NCBI GenBank assembly: GCA_964610465.1 | Contig: CAZSWA010000003.1 | Location: 6,245 to 70,244 of the forward strand | DNA from: an uncultured Gammaproteobacteria bacterium | GTDB lineage: Bacteria; Patescibacteriota; Microgenomatia; Levybacterales; UBA12049 | Direction of reading: 5' to 3' | DNA: 64,000 bases | Part shown: positions 3,780-58,492 of the stretch, piece by piece | Position numbering within the stretch: the first letter of the stretch is position 1 | Layout of the letters: every line of letters starts with the position of its first letter | Made by a program: the position numbers and the translations under genes | Notes under the pieces: generated by a model | What the model saw: only the letters and a program-made list of their open reading frames with translations | Database searches by the model: none | What the model was told of the DNA's origin: nothing

Positions 3780-4011
3780 TTATGTTTATAGTAGCATATT
3801 TTGGGCAATTTTGGGGTGTAACAAAAATATATCTCATCCGTTATATAATATAGCTGTTTTTATCTATAACTTTACCTCCGCTTTTGTGGTAGAATTATAA
3901 ATTGTTTCTGAGGAATTTATCTTCGTAATTTTCCTTCTGTAATAATTTACTGTTTAGGAATAATTATTCATTCACGAATCTCGAATTTATCTTGCTATAT
4001 CATGAATTATA

Positions 4012-14099: not shown

Positions 14100-14139
14100 G
14101 CATTGTACTTTTGTTTGATTGGTGTACAATAGTCGATAA

Positions 14140-15660: not shown

Positions 15661-15781
15661 ATTGTTACCACCTCCTATTACAAATACCCTATTGAAAGCA
15701 GATAAGAAATAAAACTAAAAAAAGTAAGCATTCTGCAAGAAATAGCCTCAAAAACCTTTCAAAAAAATGGTATAATTTTAC

Positions 15782-21371: not shown

Positions 21372-21415
21372 CCTAATTTCTAAGAATTTTTTCTGCTATA
21401 ATTATTATTATTTAA

Positions 21416-27051: not shown

Positions 27052-27540
27052 CTATCGAGTAACGTTGATCGTAGAACCCAATTCTGCAGCTGGAGCTGAA
27101 ACGGTAAGTCTGTTACTCCCACCTGCACCTGTAATGGCTTGAATGGTATATCCTGTTGTCCATGTGGTACCAGTACATCCTGATGATTGAACAGGTTGTG
27201 CTCCACCCGCTGTTAACGGGTCAACTGGAAGTGCTGCAATATACTGGGGAACTACTGCAGTACAGAATGTATTAAACGCAGTTGCAGCAATAGTTTGGGC
27301 TGTGGTGGTAATCCCTGGAGGCAACGTGCCTTTGTTGTCTGCCATATATTGATTGGTAGCATTCAGGATTGCATTGACATCTGCGCTTCTTTTAGTATTG
27401 TTTGATTGAGAAAACTGTCGCGCCGGGTTAATAGCAATAAGAGTGATTGCGAGTAAGATTGCAAGGATTCCGATGACAACCAAAAGCTCGATAAGAGTAA
27501 ACCCTTTTCCCTGTCTTTTGATAAGCAGTTGTTTATTCAT
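27052..27540 (-). CDS. type IV major pilin (prepilin leader MNKQLLIKRQGKG | FTLIELLVV, Glu5), copy 1
   Basis: Canonical class III signal peptide. Thr/Gly-rich C-terminal region. Confidence 0.85.
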   Translation of the reverse strand: MNKQLLIKRQGKGFTLIELLVVIGILAILLAITLIAINPARQFSQSNNTKRSADVNAILNATNQYMADNKGTLPPGITTTAQTIAATAFNTFCTAVVPQYIAALPVDPLTAGGAQPVQSSGCTGTTWTTGYTIQAITGAGGSNRLTVSAPAAELGSTINVTR

Positions 27541-28212
27541 AATCTATATTAAGATTTACATAAACTCTACCGTTTGTCAAGATATCAGTTTTGTATCTTA
27601 CAGATTTCATACCAGCCACTTGATTTCTTTATATAGTACAAAAAAAAGAATATTCTTGTTTAATTCTGTTTTAAGTTTTATCTTGTTACTGTAATCGTAG
27701 AACCCAATTCTGCAGCTGGAGCTGAAACGGTAAGTCTGTTACTCCCTGCAATTTGTTGAATCATATATCCTGTTGTCCATGTGGTACCAGTACATCCTGA
27801 TGATTGAACAGGTTGTGCTCCACCCGCTGTTAACGGGTCAACTGGAAGTGCTGCAATATACTGGGGAACTACTGCAGTACAGAATGTATTAAACGCAGTT
27901 GCAGCAATAGTTTGGGCTGTGGTGGTAATCCCTGGAGGCAACGTGCCTTTGTTGTCTGCCATATATTGATTGGTAGCATTCAGGATTGCATTGACATCTG
28001 CGCTTCTTTTAGTATTGTTTGATTGAGAAAACTGTCGCGCCGGGTTAATAGCAATAAGAGTGATTGCGAGTAAGATTGCAAGGATTCCGATGACAACCAA
28101 AAGCTCGATAAGAGTAAACCCTTTTCCCTGTCTTTTGATAAGCAGTTGTTTATTCATAATCTATATTAAGATTTACATAAACTCTACCGTTTGTCAAGAT
28201 ATCAGTTTTGCG
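27068..28212. repeat. tandem direct duplication (about 520-530 bp unit, period about 620 bp) containing a pilin gene plus its 55-bp upstream region
   Basis: 27068-27595 and 27692-28212 are near-identical. They differ only near the pilin 3' end (a 9-nt indel plus substitutions). Confidence 0.9.
27678..28157 (-). CDS. type IV major pilin, copy 2 (identical to copy 1 over about the first 130 residues)
   Basis: Same leader and core as copy 1. The C-terminus reads 'YMIQQIAGSNRLTVS...TITVTR' versus 'YTIQAITGAGGSNRLTVS...TINVTR'. Confidence 0.85.
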   Translation of the reverse strand: MNKQLLIKRQGKGFTLIELLVVIGILAILLAITLIAINPARQFSQSNNTKRSADVNAILNATNQYMADNKGTLPPGITTTAQTIAATAFNTFCTAVVPQYIAALPVDPLTAGGAQPVQSSGCTGTTWTTGYMIQQIAGSNRLTVSAPAAELGSTITVTR

Positions 28213-42614: not shown

Positions 42615-43244
42615 TTATAAAAACTTCCTAATTAAACTCACTACTTTTCCTTGTATTTTCACACTTTTAGGATAAATAGGTGACATACTGGAATTTGCTG
42701 GTTTGAGGATTACTCTGCCATTTTCAAGATAAAATCTTTTAAGGGTTGCAAGATTATCATCAACCAATGCTACAACTATCTCACCATTGCTTGCCTGTTG
42801 TACCCGCTCAACTACTACATAATCTCCATCCAAAATTCCATCCTCAATCATTGACTCACCTTTTACTTGCAATACGTATGCCGTTCTTTTTCCGCTTACG
42901 AGTGATGCTGAGACTTGAAATGTTGCATTTGGATCAATGTGGGGTTCAAGCGGTTTACCTGCTGCAATATATCCCATGAGCGGTAATTCAATAGATGGTT
43001 CAACTCCAAGAAAAGTAGAAGTTATAGTTTGATCCATAATTTTAAGTACTCTTGAGTTACCGTCTACTTTTTGGACGTATCCTTTATCAACTAAACTTCT
43101 GATAATGACATGTACCGTTGAAACACTCCTATGTCCTGTTGCTTTAGCAATCTCTACAAGGGTTGGAGAATATCCATATTTGCTTTGAAACTGAGCGAGG
43201 TACTCAAGGATTAATCTTTCTTTTCGATAAAGTACTCCAGGCAT
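42615..43244 (-). CDS. lexA: LexA repressor (wHTH plus S24 peptidase)
   Basis: N-terminal wHTH 'SPTLVEIAKATGHRSVSTVHVIIRSLVDKGY'. Cleavage site 'AAG'. Ser-Lys dyad region 'GESMIEDGILDGDYVVVER...LKRF'. Confidence 0.9.
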   Translation of the reverse strand: MPGVLYRKERLILEYLAQFQSKYGYSPTLVEIAKATGHRSVSTVHVIIRSLVDKGYVQKVDGNSRVLKIMDQTITSTFLGVEPSIELPLMGYIAAGKPLEPHIDPNATFQVSASLVSGKRTAYVLQVKGESMIEDGILDGDYVVVERVQQASNGEIVVALVDDNLATLKRFYLENGRVILKPANSSMSPIYPKSVKIQGKVVSLIRKFL

Positions 43245-43267
43245 ATTTAGAATAAAATGTGTACTAG

Positions 43268-43295
43268 AAATTTATACGATATTTCGTATAAATTT
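43268..43295. promoter_or_regulatory. perfect 12-4-12 palindrome AAATTTATACGA-TATT-TCGTATAAATTT overlapping the spacer and -10 of the lexA promoter; candidate LexA operator
   Basis: Seen directly in sequence. Lies 24 nt upstream of the lexA start and about 80 nt upstream of uvrB. The minus-strand -35 TTGACA is at 43295-43300. Confidence 0.6.
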
Positions 43296-43375
43296 GTCAA
43301 TAATGCTAATTGATACAAAAGATATCAATAAAAGAATTTTGTGCTACAATACGAATGACAAAAGAGAATATTCGC

Positions 43376-45376
43376 ATGAGTTTTAAACTAAAATCCAATT
43401 TCAAACCTACAGGTGATCAACCCCAAGCAATAGAAAAATTAGCGAACAATCTTAAATCAGGTGCTAAAAATCAGGTTTTGCTTGGAGTTACAGGTAGTGG
43501 AAAAACCTTTACAATGGCCAATGTAATCCAAAAAGTGCAAAGACCAACCCTTGTTATTTCCCATAATAAAACTCTTGCAGCACAGCTTTATCAGGAATTT
43601 AGAGAATTTTTCCCGGATAATGCAGTTTGTTATTTTGTTTCATACTATGATTACTATCAACCAGAAGCTTACATTCCCCAAACTGATACTTACATTGAAA
43701 AAGAAGCAGAAATTAATGACGAGATTGATAAATTACGGCTTTCAGCAACAACCAATCTTTTAACACGAAAAGATGTCATCGTAGTTGCATCTGTTTCCTG
43801 CATTTACAATTTGGGCTCACCCGTTGAATATGGAAAATTTGTATTAGAGCTTAAAGCAGGAGTTAAGATCCAACAAAAGGATATTCTTATGAGACTTACT
43901 GATTTGCAGTATGAAAGAAATGATTATGAATTCAGACGAGGGACATTTCGTATGCGTGGTAATATGATAGATTTATTTCCGGCATATATGGATACCGGAA
44001 TTCGGATTCAAATGGATGATGAGAAGATAACCAAACTCCATGAATTTGATCCCCTTACAGGAGACATCGTCAAGATTCTTGATGGTACTGTAATTTATCC
44101 TGCTAAACATTATATGACTGACCCGCGGACATATCAGGATGCGTTTGCCCATATCAATAGCGACTTGGACAAAAGAGTAGCAGAACTGAGAAGTCAAAAC
44201 AAAATTCTTGAAGCACAACGCTTAACTCAGCGGACTCACTTTGATCTGGAAATGATTCGGGAAGTAGGATATGTCAACGGCATCGAAAATTATTCTATTT
44301 ACTTTGACGGCCGAAAACCTGGAGATCCTCCTTATACACTTATTGATTATTTCGATGCTGCATCTGATAATTGGCTATTTCTGGTTGATGAATCGCATAT
44401 CACTATTCCTCAACTTCGCGGTATGTACAATGGGGATAGAGCAAGAAAACAATCTCTTATTGAGTATGGCTTCAGGCTTCCATCAGCCCTTGATAACCGT
44501 CCCCTTCGTTTTGAGGAAGTTATGAGACGGGTAAAACAGGCAATCTATATTAGTGCAACTCCTGATGAATATGAGAGGTCTCTTGCCAAAGAAACAAATG
44601 ATGGCATTGTAGAACAGCTTATCCGCCCAACAGGTTTGGTTGACCCAAAAGTCATAGTTAAGCCAACCAAAGGACAAATTGTTGATTTGATGGAAGAGAT
44701 TCAAAAACGGGTAAAGAAAAAGCAAAGAATACTCGTCACCACACTTACCAAACGTATGGCTGAGGAATTATCTAGTTATCTTGAAGAACGGGATATCAAA
44801 GTCTCCTATCTTCATTCAGATATCCAGACACTTGAAAGACAGGATGTATTGGATAGGTTGCGTCTTGGCGAATATGATGTGCTGGTTGGGATAAACCTTC
44901 TTCGTGAAGGCCTGGATTTGCCTGAAGTATCCCTTGTTGCCATACTTGATGCAGATAAAGAAGGATTCTTGAGAAGCCGCACTTCTCTTATTCAAACAAT
45001 GGGACGCGCAGCACGTAATATTGACGCAGAAGTTATTATGTATGCAGATGTTATGACCAACTCTATGAAAGCAGCAATTGATGAAGTTGAAAGACGACGA
45101 GAGATTCAGCTTGAATATAATAAAAAACACGGTATAACACCAAAAAGTATCAAGAAATCTATTAGAGCCAAACTGGTTGAAGAGGAAAAAGAAGAAAAAG
45201 GCAATGAATCTCTGGACTTCTTAATTGAAATGAGTGATAAAGAAGTTCTTTTACCCGATGAAAAAGATGATTTGGTAATCAAACTTCGAAAAGAAATGAA
45301 ACAGGCAGCAGAACGTTTAGATTTTGAAACAGCAATTTATCTTCGCGACAGGATAAAAACTGTTCAGAATAAATAA
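43376..45376 (+). CDS. uvrB: excinuclease ABC subunit B
   Basis: '[19 protein letters not shown]' is a typical UvrB start. Walker A '[10 protein letters not shown]', helicase motifs and a C-terminal UvrC-interaction coiled coil. The ORF-track start at 43310 is a TTG; the ATG at 43376 is preferred. Confidence 0.85.
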
Positions 45377-50789: not shown

Positions 50790-50842
50790 GACTTATGTTA
50801 TCAAATCATGACGTGAAGAGTCAATAAGAGATAAAAGACGTG

Positions 50843-50914
50843 AGCGGCGGACCGGATTCGAACCGGCGACCTTCTCCTTGGGAAGGAGACATTCTACCAC
50901 TGAACTACCGCCGC
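50843..50914 (-). tRNA. tRNA-Gly (anticodon CCC)
   Basis: Folds as GCGGCGG acceptor, GTTC D-stem, anticodon loop TT-CCC-AA, T-arm GCCGG-TTCGAAT-CCGGT. Discriminator U; no encoded CCA. Confidence 0.85.
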
Positions 50915-51958: not shown

Positions 51959-52184
51959 TATTGTTATTCACCTCCCTTCGCCATCCGAAGCTTTACGCGA
52001 AGGATGGTTTCGCTCCTCATTTTCTTTCTCTAAATATACCTAGTTGAGGTTCTAGGCTTCGGGGACCTTCGGCCCCCTTTCTCTTTTTTTAATTTAAAAT
52101 AACAAAAGTATTGCAATGTCGCAGAATTGCGACGCCTTTTTAGGCAGATTTATTTATATATGAGTTGGAGCAAAATGCTCTTTG

Positions 52185-52258
52185 CGGGGCCGACGGGACT
52201 CGAACCCGCGACCTCTTCCGTGACAGGGAAGCGCTCTAACCAACTGAGCTACGACCCC
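52185..52258 (-). tRNA. tRNA-Asp (anticodon GUC)
   Basis: GGGGTCG acceptor (one G-U pair), anticodon loop CT-GTC-AC, T-arm GCGGG-TTCGAGT-CCCGT. Discriminator G. Confidence 0.85.
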
Positions 52259-52330: not shown

Positions 52331-54118
52331 ATGCTCTGCTACACTCATTGTATGACAAATGACGAGATTACAAAGCTATTACGTAATGTCGCAGCAGCTT
52401 ACAGTATAAAAGATGAAAAAAAATATCGCTTTCAAATACTTGCCTATCAAAAAGCAGCAGATTCTATAGAACATTTGACAACTGAATTGCAAGAACTTCA
52501 TAATTTAGATAAGTTACACCATATTCCAGGCATCGGCCCTTCAATTCAGGCTCATCTTGAAGAATTGTTTAAAACAGGTAAAGTAAAACATTTTGAAGAA
52601 ATTCTCAAAGGAGTTCCTGAGGCAGTATTTCCCCTTCTTCAGATACCTTCCTTCGGACCAAAAAAAGCATTTCGCTTGGTTGATGCATTTAAACTCAAAA
52701 ATCCTGAAACAGTGATGCAAGATATTGTCATGCTTGGTGCTGAAGGAAAAATTGCCCAACTTGATGGCTTTGGGGAAAAATCTCAAGACGATATATTACA
52801 GGCAATAAGTGAGTTTGGACAAGGCAAAACCAAAACTGCTCGTATGGTGCTTCCTTATGCCAGTGAACTGGCAGACAAAATTGTTGAATATCTTAAAAAA
52901 TCAAGTGCAGTAAAACAAATTTCTCCTCTAGGCAGCTTACGAAGACGAGTTTCGACTATTGGAGATGTTGATATTGCAGTCGCAACAGAAAAACCTGAGG
53001 AAGTACTTGAATATTTTACAAAATATCCACATAAAGAACGGGTTATTGAACGAGGTGAGAGAACCTCTTCAATTCTTGTAGCAGGCGGCAAACAGATTGA
53101 CCTTATGACACAGCCGGTAAAGGGTTTTGGTGCGCTTCTGCAGCATTTTACAGGCAGTAAAGCGCATAATATCCACCTTCGTGACTATGCGTTATCAAAA
53201 GGGCTTTCCTTATCAGAATACGGGATTAAGAAAAAAGGTAGTATGGAAATTACGATGTATGATTCAGAAGAGAATTTTTATGATGCATTAGGTATGCAAT
53301 GGATTCCTCCTGAGATAAGAGAAAACACAGGAGAGATTGAACTGGCAATACAGCATAACTTACCAACATTGGTAGAGTTGAAAGATATTAAAGGTGATTT
53401 CCATATTCACTCAAATTACCCAATTGAACCAAGCCATGACTTAGGAATTAACTCAATGGAGGATATGATAAAAAAAGCAATAAAGCTTAATTATACGTTC
53501 CTTGCATTCTCAGAACATAATCCAAGTATTTCTAAGCATACGCCACAACAAATTTTCTCTATTCTTGAAAAAAGGAGTAAATATATTGAACACTTGAGGC
53601 TAGAGTACAATAAATATATTCGGTTATTTATTTTACTCGAGACCGATATTTTACCAAACGGAAAGTTGGCAATCGATAACGATGCGTTATCACTTCTTGA
53701 TGGCACAATTGTTTCAGTACATAGTTCTTTTGGGATGGATAAAAAAACAATGACTGAAAGGGTGCTGAAAGGATTATCACATCCCAAAGCAAAAATACTA
53801 GCACACCCGACTGGAAGACTTTTAAATCAAAGACCCGGATATGATTTGGAATGGGACAGGCTATTTGAGTTCTGCCAAAAAGAAGATAAAGCAATTGAGA
53901 TAAACGCATGGCCTTTACGCCTTGACTTACCGGATGTACTTGTACGAGAAGCTATAAATAAAGGAGTAAAAATGGTTATAGATACCGATAGTCACGCAGT
54001 AAACCATATGAATTTGATGCAATATGGAGTATCTGTTGCGCGTCGGGGTTGGGCAACAAGAAGTGACATTTGTAACACATTTGACTATAATGAAATTGAG
54101 AAATGGTTTAAAAAGTAA
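52331..54118 (+). CDS. polX: family X DNA polymerase with C-terminal PHP phosphoesterase domain (PolX)
   Basis: HhH 'IPGIGPSIQAHL', nucleotidyltransferase 'GSLRRRVSTIGDVDIAV', and PHP His/Asp clusters ('DFHIHSNY', 'FSEHNP', 'DTDSH'). Confidence 0.85.
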   Translation: MLCYTHCMTNDEITKLLRNVAAAYSIKDEKKYRFQILAYQKAADSIEHLTTELQELHNLDKLHHIPGIGPSIQAHLEELFKTGKVKHFEEILKGVPEAVFPLLQIPSFGPKKAFRLVDAFKLKNPETVMQDIVMLGAEGKIAQLDGFGEKSQDDILQAISEFGQGKTKTARMVLPYASELADKIVEYLKKSSAVKQISPLGSLRRRVSTIGDVDIAVATEKPEEVLEYFTKYPHKERVIERGERTSSILVAGGKQIDLMTQPVKGFGALLQHFTGSKAHNIHLRDYALSKGLSLSEYGIKKKGSMEITMYDSEENFYDALGMQWIPPEIRENTGEIELAIQHNLPTLVELKDIKGDFHIHSNYPIEPSHDLGINSMEDMIKKAIKLNYTFLAFSEHNPSISKHTPQQIFSILEKRSKYIEHLRLEYNKYIRLFILLETDILPNGKLAIDNDALSLLDGTIVSVHSSFGMDKKTMTERVLKGLSHPKAKILAHPTGRLLNQRPGYDLEWDRLFEFCQKEDKAIEINAWPLRLDLPDVLVREAINKGVKMVIDTDSHAVNHMNLMQYGVSVARRGWATRSDICNTFDYNEIEKWFKK

Positions 54119-55787: not shown

Positions 55788-55860
55788 TATATAAAAATCT
55801 GAATATCGAAATTCGAAATATTATTTTCCTTAATTCGTAATTCTGATTCTTACTTCTTTT

Positions 55861-57153
55861 ATGTTTAATCTGTTACTCATTACCATTGGCAAACTTATTA
55901 CCCAACTCAGCAAACTTCTAAATTTAGGTAATGGTTCCACATGGCCTGGACATATTGCCTTATCTCTCAATAAAAATTTCATCAGGGAAATTGTAAAAAA
56001 TTCCAATCTTAAAATCATCCTTATCGCAGGAACTAATGGCAAAACGACTACCTCACGCCTTTCCCGCTCAATTCTCCTCCATAGTGGAAAGAACGTGCTC
56101 CTCAATGAATCAGGCGCAAATTTACTTAATGGCATTGCTTCAACTCTTCTTTTGCATACAAATTTAGAAGGAAAAGTAAATAAAGAATATGCAATTTTTG
56201 AAATAGATGAGAATACTCTACCACTTATTCTTAAAGAACTAACACCAGACTTTGTGGTGCTTCTTAATCTCTTTCGTGATCAACTTGATAGATATGGAGA
56301 AGTCGATAATATTGCCAGAAACTGGAAGACAGCATTCGCTGCATTACCTGCATCTACTACCCTTATCTTAAATGCTGATGATCCTCAAATTGCCTATCTT
56401 GGTGAAGAAATCAAAGCGCGAACTATATACTTTGGTCTTGATGATAAGAAATCAATTCAAACTATGCCGCAACATGCATCAGACTCGATTTATTGTCCAA
56501 GATGTTCAGAACGACTCTTTTTTAAAACAGTCTATTTCTCCCATATTGGAATTTGGGAATGCAGGAATTGTAAACTGAAACGGCCGACACTCAATATTAA
56601 TTCCTATTCGTACTATCCTCTTCCTGGTGTCTATAACAAATACAATATTCATGCAGTAGTACTTCTTACCAGAACGCTTGGGATAGACAATACAGATATT
56701 GATGAAGCAGTCAAAAACTTCAAACCTGCATTTGGCAGACAGGAAATTGTGAAGTATAAAAATAAACAGATTCGTATTTTTCTTTCCAAAAATCCAACCA
56801 GCTACAATGAATCACTAAGAACTGTACAAGAACTTGATGCAAAAACAGTGCTTCTTATACTAAACGACCATATTGCTGACGGAAGGGACGTTTCATGGAT
56901 TTGGGATATTGATATGGAAAAATATCTTCCCTCTTTTGAACATATTTTGATAACAGGCACTAGAGCATATGATATGGGATTAAGAGTAAAATACGCGACA
57001 GGAAGTCAAAAGTTTACACTATTGGAAAATATACAAGAAGCGGTTGAACAAGGAATACAGAGCTTAAAGGATAGTGAAACTTTATATATTTTGCCAACTT
57101 ATACAGCGATGCTTGATGTAAGAAAAATTATAACAGGAAGGAAGATTTTATAA
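55861..57153 (+). CDS. murT: lipid II isoglutaminyl synthase subunit MurT (Mur ligase domain plus DUF1727, Cys4 ribbon)
   Basis: 'IAGTNGKTTT', 'NESGAN', 'FRDQLDRYGEVD', 'LNADDP', and 'CPRC...C..C' track Staphylococcus MurT closely. Confidence 0.85.
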   Translation: MFNLLLITIGKLITQLSKLLNLGNGSTWPGHIALSLNKNFIREIVKNSNLKIILIAGTNGKTTTSRLSRSILLHSGKNVLLNESGANLLNGIASTLLLHTNLEGKVNKEYAIFEIDENTLPLILKELTPDFVVLLNLFRDQLDRYGEVDNIARNWKTAFAALPASTTLILNADDPQIAYLGEEIKARTIYFGLDDKKSIQTMPQHASDSIYCPRCSERLFFKTVYFSHIGIWECRNCKLKRPTLNINSYSYYPLPGVYNKYNIHAVVLLTRTLGIDNTDIDEAVKNFKPAFGRQEIVKYKNKQIRIFLSKNPTSYNESLRTVQELDAKTVLLILNDHIADGRDVSWIWDIDMEKYLPSFEHILITGTRAYDMGLRVKYATGSQKFTLLENIQEAVEQGIQSLKDSETLYILPTYTAMLDVRKIITGRKIL

Positions 57154-57709: not shown

Positions 57710-58492
57710 ATGAGAAACACAAAAGATCATAAATTAACCATCGGTTGGCTGTATCCTGACCTTATGAGTATTTATGGAGATAGAGGAAATATCATTACGC
57801 TTATAAAGCGCTGCGAATGGCGTGGTATTGATATAAAAGTCAAAACTATCTCACTTCATACATCAGTAAACGAACTTAAAAGCTGTGATTTGCTTTTTAT
57901 GGGAGGAGCACAGGATAGACAGCAAAAAATCGTTTCAGAAGATCTGGTGAAAAAAGCAAAAACGCTCTTTGACATGATAGAAAAAGGTATCCCAGGACTG
58001 TATATTTGTGGAGCGTTTCAGTTTTTGGGCAAATATTATAAAGAAGCTGATGGGACAATAGTTGATGGGCTTGGAATTTTGGATCTTTATACAGTTAATC
58101 CTGGTTTTAGTGCCAAACGTCTTATTGGTAATGTAGTAGCAAAAGCTGAGAAAAATTGGTTTAGGGGAAGTGATGAGCTGTCGTATATTGTCGGCTTTGA
58201 AAATCATGGAGGACGAACGTATCTTGGAGAGAATATCCAACCCATGAGTAAAGTAGTAAAGGGCTATGGTAATAATGGAGAAGATGGGACAGAAGGTGCA
58301 GTATATAAAAATAGTTTTGGCAGTTATTTTCATGGTCCAATACTCCCTAAAAACCCTCAATTTGCTGACTATTTGATAGAAAAAGCATTAGAAATAAAAT
58401 ATGAAGATACAGTTGAGATAACTCCACTTGATGAATCATTGGAATTACAAGCAGTAAGTGTGATTGCGAAACGTTTAGGCCTTGAGCTATAA
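57710..58492 (+). CDS. gatD: lipid II isoglutaminyl synthase glutaminase subunit GatD (CobB/CobQ-like GATase)
   Basis: 'YICGAFQFLG' (catalytic Cys), 'GFENHGGRTY' and 'YGNNGEDGTEG' match S. aureus GatD almost motif-for-motif. Confidence 0.85.
   Translation: MRNTKDHKLTIGWLYPDLMSIYGDRGNIITLIKRCEWRGIDIKVKTISLHTSVNELKSCDLLFMGGAQDRQQKIVSEDLVKKAKTLFDMIEKGIPGLYICGAFQFLGKYYKEADGTIVDGLGILDLYTVNPGFSAKRLIGNVVAKAEKNWFRGSDELSYIVGFENHGGRTYLGENIQPMSKVVKGYGNNGEDGTEGAVYKNSFGSYFHGPILPKNPQFADYLIEKALEIKYEDTVEITPLDESLELQAVSVIAKRLGLEL

Follow-up and report, generated by a model that had tools for sequence, protein, structure and literature searches.

The region between the divergently transcribed genes lexA and uvrB in the 64-kb stretch of DNA analysed here (hereafter, the window) contains a perfect 28-bp palindrome, which a preliminary description had proposed to be a non-canonical SOS box. 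This raises the question of which protein the palindrome might bind and which of the two genes it might control. LexA is the most familiar case of a regulator that has altered its binding motif time and again from one bacterial phylum to another, with 17 distinct motifs reported to date, comprising both palindromes and direct repeats (PMC8565304).

A perfect palindrome overlies the lexA promoter

The features of the locus, with the lexA promoter elements located by direct reading of the sequence, are:

43268–43295, no strand: 28-bp palindrome, proposed LexA operator, made of two inverted TTCGTATA-type units
A43268 to A43279, TATT, T43284 to T43295: left arm, loop and right arm of the palindrome
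43283–43291, plus strand: right unit, TTCGTATAA
43272–43280: mirror unit
43300–43295, minus strand: lexA −35, TTGACA, the last base of which is the last base of the palindrome
43294–43277, minus strand: spacer of the lexA promoter, 18 nt, AATTTATACGAAATATCG
43276–43271, minus strand: lexA −10, TATAAA, inside the left (plus-strand) arm of the palindrome
42615–43244, minus strand: lexA, 209 aa, with an N-terminal winged-HTH domain (PF01726) and a C-terminal S24 peptidase domain (PF00717)
43342–43350, plus strand: extended −10 of uvrB, TGcTACAAT, belonging to its own promoter
43355–45376, plus strand: uvrB, first in-frame ATG at 43355, ATG matching the start in relatives at 43376

Both direct reading and an inverted-repeat search return the palindrome as AAATTTATACGA-TATT-TCGTATAAATTT, a 12-4-12 arrangement whose arms are 100% complementary. 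It is the sole perfect inverted repeat with arms of at least 12 nt (loops of 0–8 nt) in the 64 kb. The analytic expectation from base composition is 0.096 such repeats per window and 0.010 in its approximately 4.2 kb of intergenic DNA, and a first-order Markov simulation of the window gave a mean of 0.083, with at least one repeat in 4 of 60 runs. The palindrome was therefore rightly described as rare by chance (one seen versus about 0.1 expected per window). Its rarity alone is nevertheless uncommon rather than overwhelming, and its weight comes from location and conservation.

As originally described, the palindrome lies over the 18-nt spacer and the −10 of a lexA promoter with a minus-strand TTGACA. 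From the final base of the −35 it extends through the entire spacer and the −10 to a point 3 nt farther on, and so shows the overlap with RNA polymerase elements of the lexA promoter that is a feature of LexA operators. A consensus promoter scan did not list this promoter solely because the scan accepts nothing but T as the sixth base of the −10.

The product of lexA scores 170 bits against the TIGR00498 equivalog model (cut-off, 111) and aligns over its full length with the LexA proteins of T. maritima (3K2Z) and E. coli (1JHH/3JSO). It keeps the Ala-Gly cleavage site (IAAGKP) and the Ser/Lys dyad (serine in GESM, lysine in TLKR), with AAG, GESM and LKR aligning to E. coli LexA; the predicted product is, by its sequence, a full-length, cleavable LexA. 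Together with a match of 1018 bits for uvrB, these results confirm the identities initially given to the two flanking genes. No second DNA-binding regulator was found encoded at the locus.

One half-site is fixed in the lexA promoters of relatives

A LexA protein scan of species-representative genomes yielded 80 loci at 55–80% identity. The informatively named loci are from Candidatus Levybacteria/Levyibacteriota, which are part of the Microgenomates group of Patescibacteria, and the most distant ones from Woesebacteria, Pacebacteria and other Patescibacteria. Many other records bear the title 'uncultured Gammaproteobacteria'; as they are interleaved with named Levybacteria at equal identity, these titles were taken as uninformative. 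Relatives share the gene order pyrG-rplS-yraN-pyk-uvrB<>lexA-rsmI-gpmA/eno-ppdK. Approximately 70 Levybacteria lexA promoters keep the frame TTGACA (or a close variant)-17/18 nt-TATAAA/TATATT, in which the final three bases of the spacer are almost always TCG, producing a promoter-proximal unit (T)TTCG|TATA(A/T)(A/T). The unit that emerges from these promoters, including left copies that contain no −10, is TTCG(T/A)(A/G)TAT, and it abuts the −10. The promoters fall into three classes, with six further Levybacteria promoters outside them:

Class P, 32 species including that of the window: AAAATA(T/C)ACGAA-n2-3-nTCG, with an inverted copy of the unit, forming a palindrome
Class P′, 9 species: ATACTCGAA-n3-4-TTCG, with an inverted TTCGAGTAT
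Class D, 23 species: nTTC(T/G)nnnAnT plus TTTCGTATAAA (TTTCG), a direct repeat with an 11-bp period
Clearest cases of class D: CTTCGTGTAAT plus TTTCGTGTAAA in L064, GTTCGATCAAT plus TTTCG in L069, and CTTCGAGAATA plus TTTCG in L068
Class-D relative L017: putative direct-repeat operator TTGACAAGGTTCTAGTATTTTTCGTATAAA

Microgenomates other than Levybacteria contain a TTCG-N7-TTCGG direct repeat in the same lexA spacer, often with a second pair downstream.

As the SOS-box proposal would lead one to expect, relatives have kept the palindrome in their lexA promoters: TATACGA-N3-5-TCGTATA is present, with at most two mismatches, in 34 fetched Levybacteria lexA promoters, and a footprint is apparent in a crown clade of 27 species whose LexA proteins diverge by 20–25%. 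The consensus of this clade, aligned on the −10, is aTTGACA-AAAATAtACGAA-atg (n3)-TCG-TATAttTT. Information peaks on ACGAA and TCG, so that ACGAA...TCG is almost invariant while the flanks drift, and variation is found in the 3–4-nt centre, in the leader and beyond 45 nt upstream. In this clade the left unit, which lies in the spacer, is as strongly conserved as the −10. The spacer between −35 and −10 has no sequence role in sigma-70-type promoters, and promoters of this genome do not generally place TCG in front of the −10, since other genes use TGnTAnAAT; the conservation of the left unit thus points to a bound factor. The two half-sites conserved in orthologous lexA promoters are suited to a dimer. 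The CG-to-CG spacing of the inverted units, however, is 7, 8 or 9 bp among related lineages, a variation that is unusual for a rigid dimer and counts against the element being a LexA operator.

The element might also be structural or incidental, acting as a cruciform or hairpin in DNA or as a hairpin in a transcript, or being a chance product of an AT-rich promoter. Its perfect 12-bp stem would be compatible with this, as would the predicted folding energy of the palindrome as single-stranded DNA (−9.3 kcal/mol; z = −5.4 versus shuffles) and the AAATTT/AAATTT flanks, which carry the symmetry past the conserved core and lengthen it. Sister lineages, however, keep the promoter and the proximal unit with a direct repeat that is unable to form a hairpin, the element would lie outside the transcripts from the identified lexA and uvrB promoters, and a chance expectation of 0.01–0.1 contrasts with conservation in at least 27 species; we therefore consider a structural or incidental origin extremely improbable. 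An intrinsic terminator or a structured RNA was rejected, because 43100–43500 contains no terminator-like site and no Rfam match was obtained at E ≤ 1.

The site differs from known LexA boxes

A pattern search of the intergenic DNA agreed with the preliminary description in that the palindrome matches neither the Cheo box nor the E. coli consensus. The Cheo box of Gram-positive bacteria, CGAAC-N4-GTTCG, gave no match in intergenic DNA at up to two mismatches. Like the site in the window, it is palindromic with a CGAA/TTCG core; however, the CGA/TCG cores of the window are 4–5 bp closer to each other (CG-to-CG distance of 8 versus 12 bp), and the conserved AT-rich part (TATA) is placed outward instead of centrally. 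In its first half (S-T-V-H), the recognition helix of LexA presumably resembles the Bacillus type, taking the B. subtilis sequence as reference.

The E. coli SOS box, CTGT-N8-ACAG (TACTGTATATATATACAGTA), is also a LexA autoregulatory operator over the lexA promoter, and its half-site CTGTATAT resembles TCGTATAT of the window, yet the arrangement is inside-out, with CTGT outermost in E. coli and TCG innermost in the window. The only intergenic match to an E. coli-type box, at up to one mismatch, is at 3937, far from lexA. Likewise, the only intergenic matches to a GTTCG direct repeat are the T-arms of two tRNA genes, tRNA-Gly(CCC) at 50842–50914 and tRNA-Asp(GTC) at 52184–52258, both on the minus strand.

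Direct repeats are also known as LexA sites. The alphaproteobacterial LexA box is a GTTC-N7-GTTC direct repeat (PMC8565304), sharing with the ancestral arrangement in Levybacteria and Microgenomates the 11-bp period and a GTTC/TTCG-like core; the site in the window differs in being inverted and in belonging to another lineage, and we do not claim a common descent for the two motifs. The patescibacterial LexA motif (Sanchez-Osuna, Barbe & Erill 2017, Environ Microbiol 19:3465) is classified in PMC7739468 as a non-canonical direct repeat, and our comparison is with that classification alone. Superphylum and regulator are the same, direct TTCG-N7-TTCG repeats are present in the spacers of Microgenomates and basal Levybacteria, and the proximal unit of the window, TTCGTATAA, occupies the same place; in contrast, the distal unit is inverted in the window and in the crown clade. 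Accordingly, only 4 of 11 positions match at an 11-bp offset in the window, whereas class D and the outgroup show the direct orientation. Judging from these units, the difference from the patescibacterial motif is in the orientation of one half-site and not in the half-site itself. The earlier suggestion that this lineage uses a distinct LexA recognition sequence is thus correct in that the site fits none of the canonical boxes, but a non-canonical LexA motif had already been published for Patescibacteria, as referred to in PMC7739468.

A probable order of architectures, from direct to inverted

To place the three classes independently of LexA, we used a neighbour-joining tree built from UvrB. 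Class D is basal and paraphyletic in it, class P′ and scattered class P genomes are intermediate, and the genomes of the all-P group form the crown clade of 27 species, including that of the window; the LexA tree agrees with this in outline, both being quick distance trees without support values. The parsimonious reading is that the direct arrangement would have preceded the inverted one. The left units of classes D and P′ differ by approximately three substitutions within a quasi-palindromic octamer (TTCTAGTA versus TACTCGAA), making it plausible that the half-site could be flipped by point mutation.

Taking the unit as a 9-mer, we calculate centres at 43276 and 43287 for the two units of the window; the 11 bp between them equal the period of the direct repeat. 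Because of this equality, and assuming this contact centre, both arrangements would set the two DNA-binding domains on one face of the helix. The palindrome resembles the direct-repeat LexA site that occupies the same spot in relatives, rebuilt as an inverted repeat.

The interdomain linker of the window LexA (residues ~70–88) is about 10 residues longer than those of E. coli and T. maritima, with a further 5 residues in basal Levybacteria, and a longer linker would ease the reorientation of one DNA-binding domain. The recognition-helix region reads R/K-S-V/N-S-T-V/I-H (SVSTVH or SNSTVH). Among Levybacteria LexA proteins, we found no correlation between operator class and the residues of the recognition helix or the linker, nor with linker length, which fits an unchanged half-site specificity. 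We tentatively propose, as a scenario that we find attractive although we stop short of calling it probable, that, inside one candidate phylum, a single LexA family switched its operator from direct to inverted with an unchanged recognition helix and an unusually long linker, the octamer having been flipped (TTCTAGTA ↔ TACTCGAA ↔ TATACGAA) by a few point mutations while the centre-to-centre spacing of approximately 11 bp was kept.

If this were true, the extant series of direct, intermediate and palindromic sites would be a natural record of a dimeric repressor changing the architecture of its site. To our knowledge, such a change has been postulated in models of LexA motif evolution but rarely observed, and intermediates are rarely seen. 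Across some 70 uncultivated genomes, the frame and one half-site are fixed, and the other half-site is direct, altered-inverted or perfectly inverted along the tree. Should LexA bind all three forms, they would offer a compact system for examining how far a dimer with flexible DNA-binding domains tolerates the flipping of a half-site, and would supply a LexA motif usable to predict damage responses in Levybacteria; should LexA not bind them, the element would be just another promoter palindrome. For a lexA promoter to contain an SOS box is nothing out of the ordinary, whereas the graded, apparent flip of a half-site is unusual.

The palindrome stays with lexA and not with uvrB

A single SOS box in the divergent region could repress both lexA and uvrB. 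In many bacteria uvrB belongs to the SOS genes, nearly all Levybacteria and also some other Microgenomates keep lexA and uvrB in divergent orientation, and in compact versions of the region the two promoters are back to back. However, the centre of the palindrome is approximately 66 bp upstream of the extended −10 of uvrB, placing the palindrome at about −62 to −89 from the start that this promoter would give, which is outside the uvrB core promoter and at the limit of where an upstream element could be contacted. Moreover, in approximately 18 relatives with 0.3–1.5 kb inserted between lexA and uvrB, the site remains beside lexA, while uvrB keeps its TGnTAnAAT and no TCGTATA-type unit is found in the 140 nt upstream of it. 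Since uvrB has its own promoter some 66 bp away, and since the site stays with lexA when the genes separate, control of uvrB by the palindrome is not supported and the link between them is positional only; repression of both genes from one box thus appears unlikely. The initial proposal of an SOS box in a lexA-uvrB divergent promoter is consequently supported for lexA, over whose promoter the element is conserved in the position of a repressor site, and not supported for uvrB.

Nearly all relatives, even those in which about 1 kb separates uvrB from lexA, have the extended −10 TGnTAnAAT 4–8 nt ahead of the uvrB ATG, suggesting that the uvrB transcript may be leaderless or near-leaderless. Relatives lack the 21-nt in-frame extension that uvrB shows in the window (from the ATG at 43355). 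An ATACGAA at 43349, by the uvrB −10, was considered as a second site and treated as due to chance because it is not conserved in relatives.

Genes in the DNA inserted between uvrB and lexA include those for riboflavin synthase, an HD-domain deoxynucleotidase and membrane proteins, among others; none is related to repair except, possibly, that for a YfbR-like 5′-deoxynucleotidase (HD domain). The YfbR-like gene lies between uvrB and lexA in three loci of the crown clade (L003, 1974–2801; L006, 1887–2834; L011, 1931–2797), is divergent from lexA and is about 130 nt from the putative operator. The lexA leaders of these same three loci hold extra TTCG-type units.

Upstream of the lexA −35, at 43295–43328, there are TTG-type hexamers 9–11 bp apart, as is also the case in L001–L071:

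43295, plus strand: TGTCAA
43304, plus strand: TGCTAA
43313, plus strand: ATACAA
43323, plus strand: TATCAA

The run in relatives is TTGAC-n-TTTGTA-n-TTTGTC-n-TTGACA, with phasing and TTTG cores conserved in the crown clade. These hexamers could serve the two divergent promoters as −35 elements arranged back to back, or could form an array for another factor.

Similar palindromes occur outside lexA promoters

Throughout the window, ATACGA-N4-TCGTAT gave 32 matches at up to three mismatches versus 24.8 expected, and at up to two mismatches its intergenic DNA contains no match besides the palindrome itself. Correspondingly, no second copy was found upstream of any other gene of the window, which has only about 4 kb of intergenic DNA and does not contain recA, uvrA, dinB, umuC or ruvAB, so that this search, too, has low power for detecting a regulon. 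A tblastn search with E. coli RecA gave no match in the window or in the loci of the 80 relatives. The only other DNA-metabolism genes are that for PolX (52331–54118) and dnaE, just past the end of the window; a search for recA and SOS genes near lexA in the 10 kb beyond the window returned only dnaE and the ATP synthase operon. The best look-alike in the window is a near-palindrome at 55800–55825, AATATCGAAATTCGAAATATT (CGAAaTTCG, ~55807), about 40 nt upstream of murT-gatD-like genes (55861–57153 and 57710–58492); it has only the CGAA/TTCG cores in common with the lexA site.

We also compared the motif with larger collections. The 14-base core gave at least 120 matches in viral contigs, corresponding to unrelated phage palindromes, so that this pattern is useless at collection scale. 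In many phage contigs (L102, L112, L113, L120 and L121, among others) the surroundings of TATACGAA-nn-TTCGTATA are conserved, as in ttttttaacctaaaTATACGAAATTTCGTATAgattagaaagga, which suggests a recurrent, putative phage operator with the same core. For metagenomes we used an exact-match pattern of 24 positions that was designed to skip lexA promoters and has low power for detecting a regulon. It identified 69 loci outside lexA promoters, none of them beside repair genes or containing lexA, uvrB or recA, and none recognisably from Levybacteria. Their contexts were AT-rich organelle-like contigs, a dispersed repeat of another CPR-like lineage, PadR and TetR genes, and others. An identical 24-mer, ATTTATACGATATTTCGTATAAAT, occurs at 1946–1969 of L223, 49 nt upstream of a divergent PadR-family gene, and a similar palindrome at 1130–1153 of L263, 179 nt upstream of a TetR-family gene; these two are probably unrelated autoregulatory operators. 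The dispersed intergenic repeat, (gatactaat)n-AATTATACGAATATTCGTATAATT-agtatgcattagtatattggcatcg, was found in L217, L238, L239, L244, L245, L254, L260 and L262, all from one low-GC, CPR-like lineage, at sites that include the rpsL/rpsG gap, the rnc/nusB gap and the region upstream of a response regulator-pilB-pilC operon. It is MITE/REP-like and has the same palindromic core as the lexA site. Because the core recurs at PadR and TetR genes and as a dispersed repeat, the sequence of the palindrome is not in itself diagnostic of LexA.

These matches bear on the possibility that the palindrome is the operator of a different, unlinked factor, such as a PadR-, TetR- or MerR-like dimer, controlling lexA. 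The occurrence of the same or nearly the same palindromes by the PadR and TetR genes and in phage contigs would agree with it, as would the lack of any regulon tying the motif to SOS genes in the window and in the metagenome scan. Against it, the half-site forms a continuum with the TTCG direct repeats of Microgenomates lexA promoters, which fit the published motif as classified in PMC7739468; lexA autoregulation is near universal, being among the most conserved features of the SOS response (PMC8565304); and the element tracks lexA, and not its neighbours, through rearrangements. Control by an unlinked factor is thus quite improbable.

A putative autoregulatory operator of lexA

We conclude that the palindrome is probably an autoregulatory operator of lexA, as a derived, inverted form of the patescibacterial direct-repeat LexA site. 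LexA is favoured as the binding protein because autoregulation is so widely conserved, the element tracks lexA, the locus encodes no other regulator and the ancestral form fits the direct-repeat motif. According to this model, a LexA dimer would bind two inverted TTCG(T/A)(A/G)TAT-type units, covering the entire −35/−10 spacer and the −10. Bound LexA would exclude RNA polymerase, such that no open complex would form at the lexA promoter. Upon DNA damage, RecA-stimulated self-cleavage at the Ala-Gly bond would remove LexA and allow the lexA promoter to fire. The proximal unit (TTTCG|TATAAA) is the one present in all other Levybacteria, and the distal unit would have been flipped in the lineage leading to the genome of the window.

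Other features of the window and its lineage

Several genes of the window have an extended −10 TGnTAnAAT only 4–22 nt before their start codons, including uvrB (43342–43378) and those at 14100–14139, 15661–15781 and 21372–21415, among others. Additionally, in approximately 13 relatives the ATG of lexA is 8 nt after its −10. These arrangements suggest that leaderless or near-leaderless mRNAs may be widespread in the lineage.

Two tandem genes, at 27052–27540 and 27678–28157, encode pilin-like proteins with an N-terminus of the GFTLIELLVV class; their first 60 residues are identical, and they are preceded by identical upstream stretches. The pair looks like a recent tandem duplication within a cluster (27–36 kb) resembling those for type IV pili or T2SS.
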